Part shown: positions 2,287 to 44,584 of the stretch, in pieces
Numbering within the stretch: position 1 is the stretch's first letter
How the letters are laid out: the number at the start of each line of letters is the position of its first letter
Origin: Emiliania huxleyi CCMP1516
Lineage: Eukaryota
Assembly: GCF_000372725.1 (NCBI RefSeq)
Contig: NW_005201403.1
Span: 325,246-389,245, forward strand
DNA length: 64,000 nt
Direction of reading: 5' to 3'
Made by a program: the position numbers and the translations under genes
Notes under the pieces: model-generated
Databases searched by the model: none
What the model was told of the DNA's origin: nothing
The model's input: only the letters and a program-made list of their open reading frames with translations

Positions 2287-2813
2287 TGCGACCTGCTTTG
2301 AAGGCGCCTCGAAGCTAGCTCGATGGGTGCGGGTTCATCGCGTGTCTTTTCCTGCGGCCCACTGTGAAATCGGGACCTTAGCTCTCGTTTTAACACAGCC
2401 CGTAAGGTGCCCCGCCGGGGTGCCGGTTCGTTTTCCGCCCACGATCATGACCTCGGAGAACGCATTAGCCGCTACAGCGGAAGCTGTGATTTCGGCTACC
2501 TCGGCAATTTCGATGTAGCGGCTAATGCGTTTCGCGACATAATCGCTAAAACTCGAGCCAGAGCTATGGGCGCCGAGTTCGCCACCCAATTTGTGTTAAA
2601 ACGGAAGCAGGGCTCGTGGTTCGTTAACTGTAGACCACACGGACGCGCGGCCGGCGGCTGAGAAGGCCACGCAGCCCCTCTTCCTGGTCACTGACGGGAG
2701 CACTGGTCGGCGTGTAGACCCCAAGATGGCGCTGTTCGCGCCTCCCGTCCACCACTACCGATCAGGTGGCCGGCCTGGGTGCCCCCCCGGCGGGTGGGAA
2801 AGGGCGCAAAGCT

Positions 2814-2834
2814 CCGTTTCATTGCCTACCCCTG
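2814..2834 (-). mobile_element. Putative 5' terminal inverted repeat of the hAT element
   Basis: The minus strand reads CAGGGGTAGGCAATGAAACGG, a typical hAT CAGGGGT-type terminus, about 550 nt upstream of the transposase ATG. The partner TIR would lie outside the window. Confidence 0.65.
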
Positions 2835-3166
2835 TAGTTTTGACATAGTGGGGGTGCGGAGGTCCTCGCGGAGCCGGAGGGCGGCCGCGCTCGCTCTCCG
2901 GCTCTGCTCTATTTCGGGCGTGGACCACACCAGGAGGTCCAGGACGTACGCACGCCCCGCGGTCTCTTCTGAGATCTGACTTCTCTTGTGACTCTGTCGT
3001 TACACAAGAGGCGATTGCTTACACGTACACGTGGCTCTCTCTAAAGGCTCAGTACAGACGTAAAGGGGAGAGTGAGATATCTGCCGGGACGCACACAAAT
3101 GCGATGTGGCCATCCATACGTACGTCAAGTGAGAGCGCGCCGTGACGCCGTCAGAGGGTGGGTCAG

Positions 3167-4213
3167 TCACCCGACCCTCCGCTTCTTGCCTCGCCCGTCG
3201 GCCTCGCTGGGCGCAGCCGCCGCGGCGGGGGGCGAGCAGGCTGCGCAATACCAATCGCTCTCCGGGATGGCGGCGAGCGGCGGCGAGAGGCAGCCGAGGT
3301 GGAAGCCCTTGTTGCAGCCGTCGCAGAGAAGCATCCTCTCGGCGTCGCGCGGACTGCCGCACACCTCACACTCCTTGCCCACGATGGTGAGCACGTCCGC
3401 AGCGCTCACCGTCGACGTCCCGCCGGCCCCGTTTGCCGTCGGCCAGCAAGCAGCCCCGCGCCGGACTCCGTGGAGGGGGCAGTGCCGCTCGTGCCGCGGG
3501 CGCGAGCAGCGGGCGCACGGAGAGGCGGCGGCGGCGTCGGGCGAGGAGAGCACGAGGCAGTCACGCACATCCTCCGGGTGCAGCAGGTTGTGCTGCCTGA
3601 GGACCTCGAGGTGGGAGCGAAAGGGGGCGGCGAGGCCGCGGAGCTCGGCGGCGTGCTGGACCGCGAAGGCGCGGCAGAGGGCGGGCAGGCACCGGTCGCT
3701 CACCAGCCGGCTGCGCTCCGACCGCTGCACCGCCCCGTTCCACAGATCCATAAAGGCAGCCTCCGCCTCACCGACGCCGCGGCGGCTGCGGATGCGGTCA
3801 GCCGCCTGCTCGAGCTGCCACGCGCCCGCCTCGTGCCGCCACGACGGCGGCACGGGGTCCGCCTCCACCGGCCCCTCGCGCAGCGGCACGCCCCACTCGA
3901 GCGGGTGGTAGAAGCGCGCGAGGCCGCTCGGCAAGCGCTGCTGCGGCGGCGGCGGCGAGACTGGCCGCTCAGCGGCGACGGGCCGCTGCTGCTTCTTGCG
4001 CTCGCGTTGCTCCCGCTTCGATGCCTTGATGGCCGCCGCCTCGCCCCGCAGCAGCTGCTGCGCCGCCTTTTCATTGTACGGCAGCTTGATGTTGTGCTCG
4101 CGGCGGCGTCCGAGCGAGGCCGCGTTGGAGCAGGGCCCGGCGTGGAAGTCGGGCAGCGTGCAGCCCGGAGTGCCGCACAGCCGGACGCCGTCGCCGCTGC
4201 AGCGCTTCGCCAT
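3167..4213 (-). CDS. VEFS-box (SUZ12-like) protein with C-terminal PHD finger
   Basis: RFYHPL...VGEAEAAFMDLWN...SDRCLPALCRAFAVQH...FRSHLEVLRQHNLLHPEDVRDCL follows the VEFS-box pattern. CEVC...LLCDGCNKGFHLGCLSPPL...WYCAAC is a C4HC3 PHD finger. The basic tail GKKRRV is NLS-like. Confidence 0.8.
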   Translation of the reverse strand: MAKRCSGDGVRLCGTPGCTLPDFHAGPCSNAASLGRRREHNIKLPYNEKAAQQLLRGEAAAIKASKREQRERKKQQRPVAAERPVSPPPPQQRLPSGLARFYHPLEWGVPLREGPVEADPVPPSWRHEAGAWQLEQAADRIRSRRGVGEAEAAFMDLWNGAVQRSERSRLVSDRCLPALCRAFAVQHAAELRGLAAPFRSHLEVLRQHNLLHPEDVRDCLVLSSPDAAAASPCARCSRPRHERHCPLHGVRRGAACWPTANGAGGTSTVSAADVLTIVGKECEVCGSPRDAERMLLCDGCNKGFHLGCLSPPLAAIPESDWYCAACSPPAAAAAPSEADGRGKKRRVG

Positions 4214-5219
4214 GAAGGGAGGGGTGTGATGCGCTAGCCGTCGCCCACCCTTGGGCGTCCGCCTCCTCCTATCTCTCTTCGCAGACGCAGTCTCGCGGAG
4301 GCCCTAAAGGCGCTAAAGGGTGTCCATGCGCTCACCAACTCGACGCCGCCCTCTTCGGGCGGCAGGGCGATCCCCGCCGCCCTGTCGGCCTCCTCCCGCT
4401 GCTCGCGCTCGTCGCGCTGCCGCTCCTGGTGCGCCTTTCGCCGCGCCACCCCGTCTCCCGTGTGCCGCGCCCGCTCCGACATGCGGGCCTCTTCCAGTTT
4501 CCCGACCCTCGCGAACTGCGATTGCGTTCCGATCGGACGTCCATCTCGTTCCTACAGTTGTATATTCGACGTTCTTGCTTATATGCGTTTCCGGGTTCCG
4601 ATTCGTTTCCGATTCGTTTCCAGTTCCCCGTCCCTGACGAAATCTTTGCGCTCTCCTTTTTACATACATAATTTGGCGATTATATCCATAAGGGATTTCA
4701 TCCCTTTTTGGTTTGGAGATCCGTGGATTGCGATTGGTTTCGGTTTTGGGTAAAACGTATACAGCTGACGCGATGCGGCCTCTGCCTAGCTTCCTACTCT
4801 AAAGGGTGTGGATGCTGGGTTGAACAAAATCGAGGGACGCGACCCACTTCGCCCCTGGGGTGTCGACGGGCCCCCGGGGGCGACGGGGGTGCTCTCCGGC
4901 CGCGGCGGCCGAAAACGGGGACCTCTAGTACGGTCTAGTAATGAAGTGATGCACTTGATGCAAGGGTGCCATTGTGCTCTACTACAAAAGTTGTGTAAGA
5001 TGCCCAAGTCTCAGACGCTGGATCCTTAGCGGAGCTGAGTTCTGACGGTGTGAACACGAGCAACCGGAGTGACGACCGGGACCGGGCCGTACGCCGGGAG
5101 TGCCCCGACTAGCAGTGACGGGCGCGGACGAGCGAATGAGAGGTCGCTATCTGTGGAAGATGTGTTGTTAGGGACTAGGACTGCCTATCTCTAGACGAGA
5201 ACTCAGGTCAAGGCTGCGC

Positions 5220-5319
5220 NNNNNNNNNNNNNNNNNNNNNNNNNNNNNNNNNNNNNNNNNNNNNNNNNNNNNNNNNNNNNNNNNNNNNNNNNNNNNNNNN
5301 NNNNNNNNNNNNNNNNNNN
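5220..5319. other. Assembly gap
   Basis: Run of N. Confidence 1.
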
Positions 5320-23934: not shown

Positions 23935-26900
23935 CTGCTCGTTCTCAGGACAAGAATGTCCATGCACACCCGACGCATCCCACGCGCCTGTGAATAACGT
24001 CTGGGAACGCTCCAGAAGATTTTTATCTACCCTATGAACCGCCAATGGCGATTCGAACCCAGGTCCTCAGATTCGAACCCAGGTCCGCCGACCATAGGTC
24101 GAGCGGCTGACATCGAAGTGAGCCGCCGATCATATGTCGAGCGGCGGTCTTCGGTTCGAGCGGCCAATCCTGGGTTGGCGGCTGTGGGGAGTGAAAAATC
24201 GTGTGTCGGAGTGATGCCACAAGCGGACTGGCGTCGTGGCGGTGTAAAAACATTTTTGTGTGCGTATTTTATTAAACTTCTTTTCTGGGCTAACGAACCC
24301 CTGCCACATTGTGAAGTGGGCAGAAAGAAGGTGTGAACAGACAGGCGGATCGAGTGTGAAGAGACGCCATGTCATCGGACCCCAAACCCGTCGGCGGCCA
24401 GTGGCACAAGGCCGCGCGCGGGGAGTTGTCCCCCCCCAAGGGCGCGAGCGAGGAAACGCTCGTGCCTCAGCTGTTCACGGCATCAGTGCCGGACCCGCGT
24501 ACCGTGCAGATTGGTAGCGGCGGGCCTGACAGCAACAAGCGCGCACAGCCCGGCGCGCAGCACTGCTTCTTCGATGAGGAGCAATTTGCACCCCGGGATT
24601 GGACCATTCTCGGGGACGGGCCGGAGAGGCGCAATACTCTCACCATCCCGCTCGGCTCGAGCACCATTCGCGAACGCCTGGACCACTTCTGCCCGATCGT
24701 CAAGGAGGATGCGACGGCGGCGGTCGCCGCGATTGAGTCGACGTGGACGGCCTTCCGATTTTACTGCCCATGCGAGTGCGCACCCGAGAGAGACATCTCG
24801 AAGGTCAAGATCCGACCAGTGCGCGACCCACGATCCGTACCGGTGTCACAGCCGGTCATGCCAATGCTATCCACTGCGCCTACAACGCTACCCTATGCAG
24901 CCGACCTGTGGCATCGACGCTACGGGCATATGCCCGCGTCGACTATGATGATGTTGCCACATGTCACGACGGGGTGTGAATTTAAGCTTACCCCGCAACA
25001 AGCTAAGCGCCATCGGGACTCATGCAGTATATGCATACAATCCCGAATGCGAAGGGCGCCCGAGACAAAGAAGGCGCCCCGTTTTGAGAAGTCGCGCGCC
25101 CCCGGCGAGCTTGTCCACTCGGACCTACTCGGACCGCTCCCCACGAGTCTAGATGGGGGGTATCGGTACCTCGCTGTTTTTGTCGACGACTTCTCGCGCT
25201 ACATCATGGTATATCCGATGCGAGAAAAGGGTGAACTCGAAGTCCAGTACGCCCGATTCGAGCAAGACATGTCGGAATACTTCATCAGCCAGCGTCGCCA
25301 ACTACACACTGATAATGGTGGGGAGTTCATGAGCAAGTCGCTGGCCGAATACCTCACCACGAACGAGATTAAACACACCACCAGCTCTCCATACTCGCCG
25401 AACCAAAACGCCATCGCCGAACAGGCGATGTGGCGGCTCTGTTCGGTGGCGAGGGCGATGCTGCTTGAATGCGGACTCCCTACCTGCCACTGGGCAATGG
25501 CGCTCACGCAAGCAGCGCTACGACTCAACATCACGCCTCGACGCACGATCCGAGCCGGATCCAAAATTAAAGGCGCGAGCCCCGACCCAAGCGATGTGGC
25601 CTGGACCACCCCTTATGAACGTCTAAAAGGGCGCAAGCCAAACGTGCGCTTCCTGCGTGTGTTTGGATGCCGGGCCTGGGTACTCAACGAGCCTATCCAA
25701 GGACGTGCCAAGCTCGAGTCAATCGCGACAGAGGGATGGTGCATCGGGCCAGCGCGATACTCGCGTGGAATGGTCATTTACATCCCCGACAGCGAATCGC
25801 CCAACGACTTAACAAAAGGCAAGTACAAGATCACCCGGAACATCCGGGTAGACGAGTCGTTCACGCCTAAGGGACGCGTCGACAGCGGGCCATCACTAGC
25901 GCCTCCGATCGTCGCGGGGAGTGAACGCCCCCAGGCAAAGGACGTGATACTCTTCCGAGTCCCTGCCAAAGCAAAGCCTGGTGACGTGCTCGATGTCACC
26001 TCGCCCAAGACGGGAAGAAGCGTGCAAATACGTGTCGCCGAGAGGATGTACCCAGAAACATACTGGACGGCGTACGACACGACCATCCCGAACGCCGACG
26101 ACGCTGTCTTTGGCACAGCGCAATCAATAATCGACGCGAGCGCTGATGGAGCCGACGCTGGGAGCACCACTGCACCCTCGCGGGGCCTTCCCACAGAGGG
26201 GGTGCTAGTCGGCGGCAAAAGCAAGCAGCTCAAGAAGATATCCAAGCGCGCTCGCGACAACGCCATCAAGGGTGGCCCCGTCAACAGCCCGTCGTCTGAC
26301 CCGACACTTCCACCAACCTGGGTGACAGCTGTTCCAGGGGGTGGCGCCCCCGGGGACGATGTCACCTGGGCAACTCCGGTCCCACCGCCCAGGGTGACCG
26401 CTGTGCCCGGAGGGCCCAAAGGTACTGACGTGACTTGGGCGAGCGTCGCTGGGCGCCATGACAGCCAGCAGCCTACAGCCCAAGCCTCGGCTGAGGGGGT
26501 GGACGGCGCGCAGCTCGTGACTGCGAACATGACGCATACAATGCGCATGCACAGGACAGACTTCGAGGAGCTCAGCGAGGCTCTCGAAGACGGTGACGAG
26601 GAAGCGATCGAGCAGTTCATCACCAAGCAGAAGATGTTACGAGGCGATGACCCCGACATCACATACACGGTCGGCATCCCCCCAAGCTGCAAGTCTGCCC
26701 TAACGGGCCCTGACAAAGAGAAATGGATACCGTCATACACTGAGGAGCTAACGGCACTCCAACAAAATAAGACGTTCTCCGTAGAGGACATCCCCGCCGG
26801 CGTCCATGTCATCGACCCAACAGTTGTGCGAGATGTCAAACGTGATGAGAACGGCCGCCCAGACCGCTGGAAGACGCGCGTCTGCGCTCGAGGCTTCATG

Positions 26901-29097
26901 CAGCGGCTGGGCGAACATTACTTCAACACGTTCAGCAACACGGTTCGATATGAGACGCTGCGACTACTTATGGCGATAGCCGCAGGCAACGACCTCGCCC
27001 TTACGAGTCTTGACATCAAGACGGCTTACCTCAACGGCTACATCGAAGGGGGCGTCCAGATTTACATGCGCTTTCCTGCCGGATGGCACTTTGAGGGTGA
27101 CGGATTCGACTACACCTTCAAATACACTGGTGATCACACGCGCAAGAGGGGGCGTCCCGAGCGTGGACTACGACTGGTCAAGGCCATCTACGGTCTGAAG
27201 CAGAGCGGAGCACTCTGGGAAGAGACGCTCCGATCGTTCCTACTCTCCATCAACGCCGTCCAGTGCGTCGTTGACCCATGCCTGTGGCGGTACTCCAAAG
27301 GCGGCAACACCCTGCTCTTCGTCGTGTACGTTGACGACATCGTGATCGCCTGCTCCAACCAAGACTTTCGCGATGCGTTTGTGAGCATGCTCCAAGAGCG
27401 ATTCACATTGCGCGACAATGGCCCACTCACCTGGGTGTTCGGTTCTGCCGTCGAGCAGGACCTAGAGCAAGGCACCGTTAGCTTTCACCAAAAGCTCTTC
27501 ATTCAAGATACCGTCAAGGAGTTCCTGGGCGACGACCCCCGCCCTAGTAAGCGCGCCGTACCGTGCAACGACGACATCACCAATCTCACCCACCTCGAAG
27601 AGGGAGAAATGATGCACCCACGATACGCCGAAATTGTTGGCAAGATAGGGTGGTTGGCCAACATCTCCCGACCAGACATTGGCTACGCCTACTCGACGCT
27701 CTCAAAGTTCCTAAAGGGGGGCGGGGAGCGCCATTTCAACATTGCCCTTGGCGTCCTCGCTTACCTGGACAAGACAAGGGACAAGACGATCACCTATCGC
27801 CGCGAGGCAGATGGCAACCTCGCCGATCACATCGTAGAGCATGCCGACTTAGCCAGCTTCGACTACGACAGGTTCGTGCCGATCATCTTCTCGGACACCT
27901 CTCATGGCGGGGAAAAGCCTCAGGCGGGATACGTGATTTTTGTGTGCAATGGGCCTGTCTCTGCACACGCTGGGCGCCTTAAGTCCACGCCCACCTCATC
28001 GTCCGAAGGCGAGTACGCCATTGCGACCAAGGCCACACAAGCGGCCATCGCGGTCTCGGACACCATCAAGTTCATGGCCGAGGACCTACCCGACTACAAG
28101 GGCAACAAGTCGGACCTCGGATGCACAATGCCGCTCTTCTGCGACAATAGGGCGGCCGTGCTCCTTAGCGAGGGCAACACCTCCTCGAAGCGTATGCGAC
28201 ACGTTGCAACGCAGATCGCCTTCCTACGCGAGCAGGTGAAAGACGCGAAGCGTGTCAAGCTCATCCACATCCGAACGCAAGGGCAGATAGCTGACCTCTT
28301 CACGAAGCCGCTGGCCGCGGCTGTCTTTCACCCTCTCCGCGCCTTTGTTGTGGCGTGACACCACAGAAGGCTACGACGCCCACCCACTACAGAGGTGGTG
28401 AGCAGACGGAGGTTGCGTCACCGTGCCGTAAGAGCGTGACGACCCCATGCAGGTTAGGGACGAGCTGTGTGGGTCCAGCGACTAGGATGCGATGCGCATC
28501 GGCTAGTCACTGAGGGGGTGATCTGCTCGTTCTCAGGACAAGAATGTCCATGCACACCCGACGCATCCCACGCGCCTGTGAATAACGTCTGGGAACGCTC
28601 CAGAAGATTTTTATCTACCCTATGAACCGCCAACGGCGATTCGAACCCAGGTCCTCAGATTCGAACCCAGGTCCGCCGACCATAGGTCGAGCGGCTGACA
28701 TCGAAGTGAGCCGCCGATCATATGTCGGGCGGCGGTCTTCGGTTCGAGCGGCCAATCCTGGGTTGGCGGCTGTGGGGAGTGAAAAATCGTGTGTCGGAGT
28801 GATGCCACAAGCGGACTGGCGTCGTGGCGGTGTAAAAACATTTTTGTGTGCGTATTTTATTAAACTTCTTTTCTGGGCTAACGAACCCCTGCCACATTGT
28901 GAAGTGGGCAGAAAGAAGGTGTGAACAGACAGGCGGATCGAGTGTGAAGAGACGCCATGTCATCGGACCCCAAACCCGTCGGCGGCCAGTGGCACAAGGC
29001 CGCGCGCGGGGAGTTGTCCCCCCCCAAGGGCGCGAGCGAGGAAACGCTCGTGCCTCAGCTGTTCACGGCATCAGTGCCGGACCCGCGTACCGTGCAG
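23935..29097 (+). mobile_element. Ty1/Copia LTR retrotransposon, recent, internally deleted
   Basis: 575-bp LTRs at 23935-24509 and 28523-29097 with 2 mismatches seen. CCCCC on both flanks. PBS-like TGGTAGCGG at 24512 and PPT-like GAGGGGG at about 28512. Domain order IN-RT-RH. Confidence 0.97.
24369..28358 (+). CDS. Copia pol (integrase, reverse transcriptase, RNase H)
   Basis: LWHRRYGH...CSIC (HHCC), VHSDLLGP, HTDNGGEF, QNAIAE, WKTRVCARGF, LDIKTAYLNG, KAIYGLKQSG, VYVDDI, FCDNRAA, QIADLFTKPL. Confidence 0.95.
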   Translation: MSSDPKPVGGQWHKAARGELSPPKGASEETLVPQLFTASVPDPRTVQIGSGGPDSNKRAQPGAQHCFFDEEQFAPRDWTILGDGPERRNTLTIPLGSSTIRERLDHFCPIVKEDATAAVAAIESTWTAFRFYCPCECAPERDISKVKIRPVRDPRSVPVSQPVMPMLSTAPTTLPYAADLWHRRYGHMPASTMMMLPHVTTGCEFKLTPQQAKRHRDSCSICIQSRMRRAPETKKAPRFEKSRAPGELVHSDLLGPLPTSLDGGYRYLAVFVDDFSRYIMVYPMREKGELEVQYARFEQDMSEYFISQRRQLHTDNGGEFMSKSLAEYLTTNEIKHTTSSPYSPNQNAIAEQAMWRLCSVARAMLLECGLPTCHWAMALTQAALRLNITPRRTIRAGSKIKGASPDPSDVAWTTPYERLKGRKPNVRFLRVFGCRAWVLNEPIQGRAKLESIATEGWCIGPARYSRGMVIYIPDSESPNDLTKGKYKITRNIRVDESFTPKGRVDSGPSLAPPIVAGSERPQAKDVILFRVPAKAKPGDVLDVTSPKTGRSVQIRVAERMYPETYWTAYDTTIPNADDAVFGTAQSIIDASADGADAGSTTAPSRGLPTEGVLVGGKSKQLKKISKRARDNAIKGGPVNSPSSDPTLPPTWVTAVPGGGAPGDDVTWATPVPPPRVTAVPGGPKGTDVTWASVAGRHDSQQPTAQASAEGVDGAQLVTANMTHTMRMHRTDFEELSEALEDGDEEAIEQFITKQKMLRGDDPDITYTVGIPPSCKSALTGPDKEKWIPSYTEELTALQQNKTFSVEDIPAGVHVIDPTVVRDVKRDENGRPDRWKTRVCARGFMQRLGEHYFNTFSNTVRYETLRLLMAIAAGNDLALTSLDIKTAYLNGYIEGGVQIYMRFPAGWHFEGDGFDYTFKYTGDHTRKRGRPERGLRLVKAIYGLKQSGALWEETLRSFLLSINAVQCVVDPCLWRYSKGGNTLLFVVYVDDIVIACSNQDFRDAFVSMLQERFTLRDNGPLTWVFGSAVEQDLEQGTVSFHQKLFIQDTVKEFLGDDPRPSKRAVPCNDDITNLTHLEEGEMMHPRYAEIVGKIGWLANISRPDIGYAYSTLSKFLKGGGERHFNIALGVLAYLDKTRDKTITYRREADGNLADHIVEHADLASFDYDRFVPIIFSDTSHGGEKPQAGYVIFVCNGPVSAHAGRLKSTPTSSSEGEYAIATKATQAAIAVSDTIKFMAEDLPDYKGNKSDLGCTMPLFCDNRAAVLLSEGNTSSKRMRHVATQIAFLREQVKDAKRVKLIHIRTQGQIADLFTKPLAAAVFHPLRAFVVA

Positions 29098-43305: not shown

Positions 43306-44584
43306 TCGATCCGGCGCGTCAACCGCGTCAACGGTGGCGTCCCCGGTCAGTGTCACCTGCTGTTCACATAAACGCACAACTCCGGACCCAAGACGCACAA
43401 GCACAGACAGTCGAGAAGGGGGAGAGACAGCAACGACAGTCAGAAGTCAGCGCTGGGTCCCAGGAAGGCGAATGCGATGACGGCCTCTAGTGTGAGCTCT
43501 AGCTAGTGAGCTCATACGCACGCCGGCAGATCGCGACTATATACAGCTAGTTAAGAGCCGACCGACCCTCGCGTCCGGTGCTCACCGACGGCCGGGCGGG
43601 CCGCCCGCCCACGCGCCGCCTACGCGCAGCGCGTGCGCCGCAAACTCGCCCGCCGACAGCGCTGGCCAGTCTCCATCGGCCGTCGCGAGAGGGACGACCG
43701 AAGAGGAAAAATGGTTACCGGCCCTGGATGTGAAGACGAAACACCAGTGGTAATCCCGTCGTCAGCTGTCACGATGCACCCGAAGGGGACCCCAGCGCCA
43801 GCGTCATCTGTGGAGGTACAAGTGTTCGAAGAGAGAGTGGACCTGAGCAACGACATGACTTGGCGGCAAATGATCGCAGTGAGTGGGCGTCAGAAGAGTC
43901 GTCCTTGCGCGAGGAGAGCTCGATAAACTCGAGGGGCCGAAATATGCCGCGAGGAGGGCAGAGTTGCGACGAAAGGCGAGAGAAGAAGCGAGAGCAAGGG
44001 ATCGGCAGGCGGCGACGGCGTCGCAGAACGAGGCAGAGGAGAGCGACGCGACAGAGGATGAAGCGACAGGAGAGATAACGACGAGAGTGGGACGACCGCG
44101 AGGTGATTGCGAAGAGAGATAGGAAGAAGCAGACGCCCAAGGGTGGGCGACGGCTAGCGCACCACACCCCTCTCCTTAAAATCCAAGTGTGGTGGCGGCG
44201 TGCCGTCCGGCGACGGCGGCGAGCTGCTCCAACTTATGGAGAAACAAAAGCGCTTGCTCGAGCAGCCCCTTCTGCGACGGGTAAAACATGCGGTACTTGT
44301 CCAGCTGCGTCTGCAGGAAATCCTTGACGCCCGAGTTCATTTTGTAAATACTCCTATGGCGTTATTGAGAAGAAAGTTGCATCCAATGACCCCTGGACGT
44401 ATCTTGAACACTCTGGCCTGGGCATCCAATGACCCCTGGACGTCCCCTGTAACTATTGATATTGATTATTGACAGCATCCCCTCTAACTATTGACAATAT
44501 ATTGACATATTGATCGCTGATTTGTCCCAGACATTGCTTAGATGTGGGCTGAAATCGAAAAAATCGCGAGTTCAAGGATGTCTG

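Follow-up and report, generated by a model that had tools for sequence, protein, structure and literature searches.

An intronless open reading frame of Emiliania huxleyi was found to encode a SUZ12-like VEFS protein that carries a C-terminal PHD finger. With moderate confidence, we read this protein as the likely working SUZ12 subunit of E. huxleyi PRC2, to which the PHD finger was probably added recently and in which it is predicted to bind the unmodified H3 N-terminus. The frame lies on the minus strand (3167..4213) of a 64,000-nucleotide stretch of strain CCMP1516 (contig NW_005201403.1; hereafter the window) and runs uninterrupted from ATG to stop, in agreement with the 348-aa intronless ORF of a preliminary description of this DNA. 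Its product (the window protein) is 98–99% identical to E. huxleyi EMIHUDRAFT_200399, also 348 aa long, and EMIHUDRAFT_102271.

The pairing of the two domains is not new, contrary to what the preliminary description implied. Both E. huxleyi genes were catalogued with PHD and VEFS-Box in Table S8 of a published survey (Sharaf et al. 2022, PMC9018016), where an automatic domain scan listed EMIHUDRAFT_200399, the same gene as ours with few substitutions; neither the Cys/His motifs nor the acidic loop nor the PHD junction is analysed there. In Table S8, the only entries recorded with PHD are Neurospora crassa and these two genes; from the survey's table of canonical Su(z)12 proteins PHD is absent. 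According to the survey, a PHD is part of the Su(z)12-like PRC2 subunit of N. crassa, and the layout is known in four fungal classes (PMC9018016), so the fusion has a fungal precedent. Our additions are the haptophyte layout, a likely sequence of events in which loop loss preceded PHD gain, and a predicted PHD ligand. Our literature search found no paper discussing a haptophyte VEFS-PHD protein and no printed account of H3K27me3 in E. huxleyi. The supplements of PMC10638273 gave no match for six haptophyte names, and the PMC11798906 supplement contained no expression table for the VEFS-PHD gene.

The VEFS box spans residues 95–223 (3545..3931, minus). Pfam VEFS-Box matched its core at residues 131–219 (window 3557–3823); the score of 31.3 bits (E 2e-7) exceeds the cut-off of 23. 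When the VEFS part alone was compared with the PDB, all ten matches were SUZ12 chains, at weak scores (best E 0.024); with a profile built from 24 relatives, all ten were again SUZ12 chains, with a best E of 2e-15. Foldseek with an AlphaFold model returned eight matches at E≤0.001, every one in a PRC2 entry, with TM by target reaching 0.66. In that model the VEFS helices were confident and the PHD, which was present in a single alignment row, had low confidence; single-sequence folding of residues 218–335 gave a pLDDT of 33. In the ESM Atlas, the VEFS part matched unnamed clusters only, at 0.89–0.90. The VEFS-like block that the preliminary description had placed at about 3550–3915 was thereby recovered. 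HMM searching matched both VEFS-Box and PHD, and when we looked for a lack of any profile or structural match to VEFS, we found SUZ12 profile and PRC2 fold matches.

In an alignment with human SUZ12 (6c23), W132 corresponds to W591 and N159 to N618, two residues required for the activity and assembly of human PRC2 (PMC4853478). W132 was present in all 24 aligned rows and N159 in 23. The window protein therefore has the features of a VEFS protein, namely a profile score above the curated cut-off, the VEFS helical fold and equivalents of W591 and N618, and in sequence, fold and these two residues it resembles SUZ12/EMF2/VRN2/FIS2 of animals and plants.

It differs from the animal and plant proteins in lacking the docking part made up of ZnB, WDB1, C2, Zn and WDB2. 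Only 94 residues precede the VEFS box, and the Zn_SUZ12 Pfam model, which matches the outgroup proteins P0090 and P0095, found no match in the window protein. Two short Cys/His motifs instead flank the VEFS box, and the PHD sits in the same chain, whereas in animals and plants it belongs to accessory PCL-type proteins. In solved PRC2, VEFS lies between EZH2 and EED and seals the EZH2 active site, while the SUZ12 N-terminus together with RBBP4 docks accessory readers (PMC7000746, PMC4853478). A minimal EZH2-EED-VEFS complex is active (PMC7000746). The survey of Sharaf et al. lists for E. huxleyi two E(z) models, one ESC and no canonical Su(z)12 (PMC9018016, Tables S4, S5, S6), with EMIHUDRAFT_200399 and EMIHUDRAFT_102271 as its only VEFS proteins (Table S8). 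A SUZ12 role is suggested by the Pfam VEFS-Box score above cut-off, the profile of relatives that matched SUZ12 chains only, the fold matches among PRC2 entries, the retained W132 and N159, the presence of E(z), ESC and only these two VEFS proteins, and the activity of the minimal complex. By analogy with solved PRC2, the VEFS box would pack between E(z) and ESC and activate H3K27 methylation. The window protein would fill this role while being unable to build the RBBP4/accessory docking lobe. Since haptophyte SUZ12 lacks the N-terminal part that docks RBBP4 and accessory readers in animals, the appended PHD might act as the complex's own nucleosome tether, favouring H3 tails without H3K4me3.

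The PHD finger occupies residues 282–326 (3236..3370, minus) and was matched by Pfam with 48.5 bits (E 9e-13). All eight Cys4-His-Cys3 ligands are present (C282, C285, C297, C300, H305, C308, C323 and C326), confirming the canonical finger described earlier at about 3240–3375. The Trp of H3K4me3 readers is missing; G303 stands there, two places ahead of H305, at what we take to be the second-strand Trp site of H3K4me3-reading PHDs. Of the aspartate pair xCDxCDx that defines the nW-DD subtype, D298 is kept and the second is replaced by N301. The best PDB matches were fingers of KMT2D, MLL3, KDM5B, WSTF, BAZ2B, ATXR5 and UHRF1, the top two being tandem KMT2D/MLL3 fingers, and no ING or BPTF finger was among the best 60 of 87 matches. 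With the PHDs of KDM5B, WSTF, BAZ2A/B, UHRF1 and ATXR5, most of which bind unmodified H3, the window PHD shares the spacing, the Asp after the third Cys and the absence of Trp before the His. It differs from such Trp-less fingers in having Asn for the second Asp (as WSTF does) and in having no acidic residue at the position two ahead of the first Cys. PHDs that lack the second-strand Trp are typically readers of unmodified H3, often with the Asp pair anchoring H3R2; in one PHD tested, the two aspartates had separate roles, the first being important for H3 and the second for H4 (PMC10570056). Because the Trp is absent and the first R2-binding Asp, D298, is kept, we predict from these residues that the finger likely reads the unmodified H3 N-terminus.

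To place the fusion, we used residues 1–228 as a HMMER query. Two of the 66 matches were near-identical proteins (P0003 and P0004), and we ran Pfam on the remaining 64 in two batches (49 and then 15). VEFS was found at E≤0.01 in 35 of these relatives (34 at or above the cut-off) and PHD in none of the 64, many of which are partial gene calls. Nine further cluster members likewise had VEFS and no PHD by Pfam, and neither an alignment-based search nor an N-terminal word search yielded additional relatives. Relatives that could be named came from Chrysochromulina parva (P0120) and Prymnesium sp. (P0045); these and other short haptophyte VEFS proteins share VEFS and both Cys/His motifs with the window protein at about 35–55% identity, but have no PHD, and most keep the acidic loop. 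Of the 14 haptophytes in Table S8, six others have one PHD-less VEFS protein each and seven have none (PMC9018016). The fusion, for which a survey of haptophytes had been proposed, is therefore not haptophyte-wide.

Among the relatives, P0032 (a record derived from a transcript) and P0133 are the closest; they match the window protein through D[VL]LxI[VI] and then continue for 10–20 unrelated residues, although in P0048 and P0133, which come from long contigs, the letters past the motif could hide a splice donor and thus a PHD exon. This motif, DVLTIV in the window protein (residues 273–278; 3380..3397, minus), is the last stretch common to the closest PHD-less relatives and marks the putative PHD junction. 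On the simplest reading of these alignments, the PHD was added on near residue 279. As the most closely related proteins end just past the motif and none of the 64 carries a PHD, the domain looks like a recent, independent addition. A foreign donor was considered on composition and is not indicated, GC3 being alike across the domains (0.87–0.95). N. crassa XP_963451 and related fungal proteins also combine VEFS and PHD in one chain (compared by description) but belong to another supergroup; this difference and the PHD-less haptophyte relatives suggest that the PHD was likely gained independently of fungi.

The region equivalent to the acidic, phosphorylation-dependent stimulation loop (residues 116–132; 3818..3868, minus) has lost most of its acidic residues. 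Anchoring on W132 puts S124 at the S583 position, followed by WRH, so that the Ser of the canonical D-S-E loop is kept and its acidic surroundings are degenerate. We scored loop acidity as the number of acidic residues in the eight positions preceding W132. The window protein has one and the reference allele two (G130/D130 differs among copies), whereas 19 of 21 relatives that have the Trp and lie outside the subgroup described below have four to six. The preliminary description had the acidic patch reduced to EAD; the reduction holds, and EAD itself is one of two possible registers.

In a VEFS tree built from 27 of 29 aligned regions (two short rows were left out), the window protein and the reference allele share a branch with P0032, P0116, P0133 and P0054 (support 88/99, not starred), and the window protein is a long branch inside its group. 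All six members have one to three acidic residues, and the four branch-mates have no PHD. Because these four share the loop loss without a PHD, loop decay likely preceded the arrival of the PHD; the branching thus points to a likely order, with the acidic loop disappearing first, within a small set of relatives, and the PHD being gained later. In human PRC2, the D582-pS583-E584 motif boosts activity and is dispensable for assembly (PMC9645763). By analogy, a complex containing the window protein would assemble but would lack the CK2 switch.

The N-terminal Cys/His motif noted in the preliminary description (C-x4-C-x5-H-x3-C, residues 13–28; 4130..4177, minus) was confirmed. It belongs to no Pfam family, is likely a small zinc-binding module, and had no match in the ESM Atlas. 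It is followed by a basic, proline-rich linker (residues 41–94; 3932..4093, minus) with a predicted helix at 48–76, which is little conserved except for a PYNE motif common to the closest relatives. Downstream of VEFS, we found a second, conserved motif that had gone unmentioned, C-x2-C-x2-P-x-H-x3-C (C233–C245) with G-A-A-x-W (residues 233–258; 3440..3517, minus). Among the 33 VEFS relatives of the first batch, the N-terminal motif occurred in 17 and the second (C-x2-C-x2-P-x-H-x2/3-C) in 17, many of the others being fragments. A Cys/His motif, VEFS and a second Cys/His motif, without the animal and plant docking region, thus look like the layout of haptophyte SUZ12. In one VEFS relative (P0050), a Cys/His motif lies at the C-terminal end, replacing or additional to the N-terminal one. 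Another, P0042, resembles the BAH protein P0065 at its start and the window protein thereafter, the two being joined within the N-terminal motif; it is either an assembly chimera or a recombinant.

Near-identical proteins fell into two clusters, which include EMIHUDRAFT_200399, EMIHUDRAFT_102271, one UniRef entry and one MMETSP ORF marked complete (P0023). Both domains were present in 24 of the 26 near-identical proteins listed (15 of 17 and 11 of 11 cluster members), the other two being single-domain fragments. The PHD was intact in 25 of these 26, with a single Tyr/Phe difference, and the remaining one was an N-terminal fragment. The MMETSP ORF carries both VEFS and PHD, and single contigs of runs X1, X2, X4 and X13, which we guessed to be RNA, span the two domains without a splice. 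These observations make a joined transcript likely, where transcripts not joining the domains had been named as evidence against the fusion. In the runs guessed to be RNA, no splice joint was listed at the intron of the neighbouring gene, and one X13 contig departs from the reference at the intron start. Depth in run X15 was 74 over the gene body and 39 over the 3' flank, a difference of about two-fold, and its contigs fork just past the PHD; both observations fit two gene copies. The C-terminal tail (3170..3235, minus) is variable. Four different tails (P0001, P0002, P0003 and P0019) begin no more than one residue from the last PHD cysteine in copies that are otherwise 99% identical and among which there are also at least two kinds of upstream sequence.

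An independent contig, L001, matches window 2851–4319, its ORF differing by two silent and two amino-acid changes. Downstream of the VEFS-PHD gene, L001 carries an intact TPR protein gene (2397–4060, with one apparent intron near 3675–3790), which we take to be BBS8/TTC8-like. From 2850 downwards, the window has multi-copy DNA in its place, and since this DNA replaces the L001 flank, insertion of a mobile element about 315 bases past the stop codon is likely in this assembly. On the other side, a short high-copy repeat (4219..4284) ends six bases upstream of the ATG, and some gene copies carry a different upstream sequence. The gene therefore sits in a repeat-rich, shifting setting, and nothing marks it as element cargo.

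Several observations bear on alternatives to our main reading. The best PHD matches are KMT2D/MLL3 fingers, and one MLL3 PHD cluster binds no histone tails (PMC10570056); this and the Asn at the second Asp count against a histone-targeting role. The relatives manage without a PHD, so the domain is not needed for the ancestral role. It is possible, if somewhat doubtful, that the protein is an ordinary haptophyte SUZ12-like PRC2 subunit whose PHD is a recent passenger or a non-H3 binder with no targeting role. The repeats and variable ends around the gene would make an accidental domain gain easy. Yet the finger is intact in all but one of the near-identical proteins listed, a weak sign of selection among such close copies, and a fungal PRC2 subunit also has one.

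The loss of the acidic loop also weighs against a working SUZ12. It would suit a divergent regulator or a PRC2-independent VEFS protein, such as a weak or competing subunit, with the SUZ12 job done by another, undetected protein. The low Pfam score (31 bits, against up to 75 among relatives) and the long branch point the same way, and the survey itself cautions that PRC2 membership of VEFS proteins needs experimental proof and that proteins unrelated to Su(z)12 can take its place (PMC9018016). However, the loop loss is common to PHD-less relatives, the S583 contacts are dispensable for human PRC2 assembly, the interface residues are retained, and the survey holds no further E. huxleyi VEFS protein. 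We consider this explanation unlikely, and the divergent regulatory paralogue offered in the preliminary description is likewise disfavoured, as the survey found no VEFS protein in this species beyond the two near-identical copies. An assembly chimera, or else a dead copy carried by a transposon, might further be suggested by the repeats on both sides, the insertion that runs downwards from 2850, the N gap at 5220 and the several alternative 5' and 3' ends. That idea is very improbable and largely refuted: both domains recur in 24 of 26 near-identical proteins listed from several sources, L001 has the same ORF beside an intact TPR gene, and the transcript-derived ORF is complete. The likely working SUZ12 with a recently added PHD is thus our preferred reading, and the PRC2 subunit with a built-in reader that was first proposed fits this evidence, its domain calls having been confirmed.

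A broader and more tentative reading joins these results. Haptophyte SUZ12 may have swapped the RBBP4/accessory docking lobe for two small, undescribed zinc motifs, and the Emiliania line may then have lost the phospho-stimulated acidic loop and gained the PHD. Such a PRC2 would target itself, reading unmethylated H3K4 directly in a way convergent with fungi, and might steer silencing as cells switch between haploid and diploid phases. If the PHD targets the complex, this would be a natural three-protein PRC2 with a built-in reader and a compact test of how PRC2 finds chromatin without RBBP4-docked accessory factors, for which the PHD-less haptophyte relatives are ready controls. Polycomb transcripts differ between life phases of E. 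huxleyi (PMC11798906), the main bloom-forming coccolithophore, so the protein could matter for a life cycle of global importance.

The motif C-x4-C-x5-H-x3-[C/H] was also found in 15 proteins without VEFS, often two or three times over (P0065, P0067, P0070, P0071, P0075, P0077, P0078, P0080, P0083–P0087, P0091 and P0094). Eight of them matched chromatin domains (CW twice, chromo twice, SRA, and more weakly BAH, Tudor and ELM2), one matched a glycosyltransferase and six matched nothing. It may represent a mobile zinc module, so far undescribed, in the chromatin proteins of haptophytes. The viral contigs searched contained no relative of the window protein or of the motif protein P0086.

Other features of the window were also recorded. 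Positions 1–2850 are missing from L001 and the X15 contig at this place, are multi-copy, and begin with CACTA (minus) at the break. They include a hairpin at 2459–2531 and a 699-aa ORF (187–2286, minus) whose motifs are reminiscent of a DDE transposase; the reading frame seems to shift near 500, and neither Pfam nor the PDB gave a meaningful match for this ORF. The repeat next to the ATG has a second core copy at 44134–44160; over 4219–4284 and 44108–44211, X15 contig depth was thousands of times that of single-copy sequence, and depth was also high in the runs guessed to be RNA. An Rfam scan over 2300–5200 gave three matches only, far under the cut-offs, and left the 4219–4284 repeat unmatched. 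At 24360–28358, an open frame of 1332 aa with integrase, RVT_2 and GAG-pre-integrase matches corresponds to the pol of a copia-type retrotransposon.
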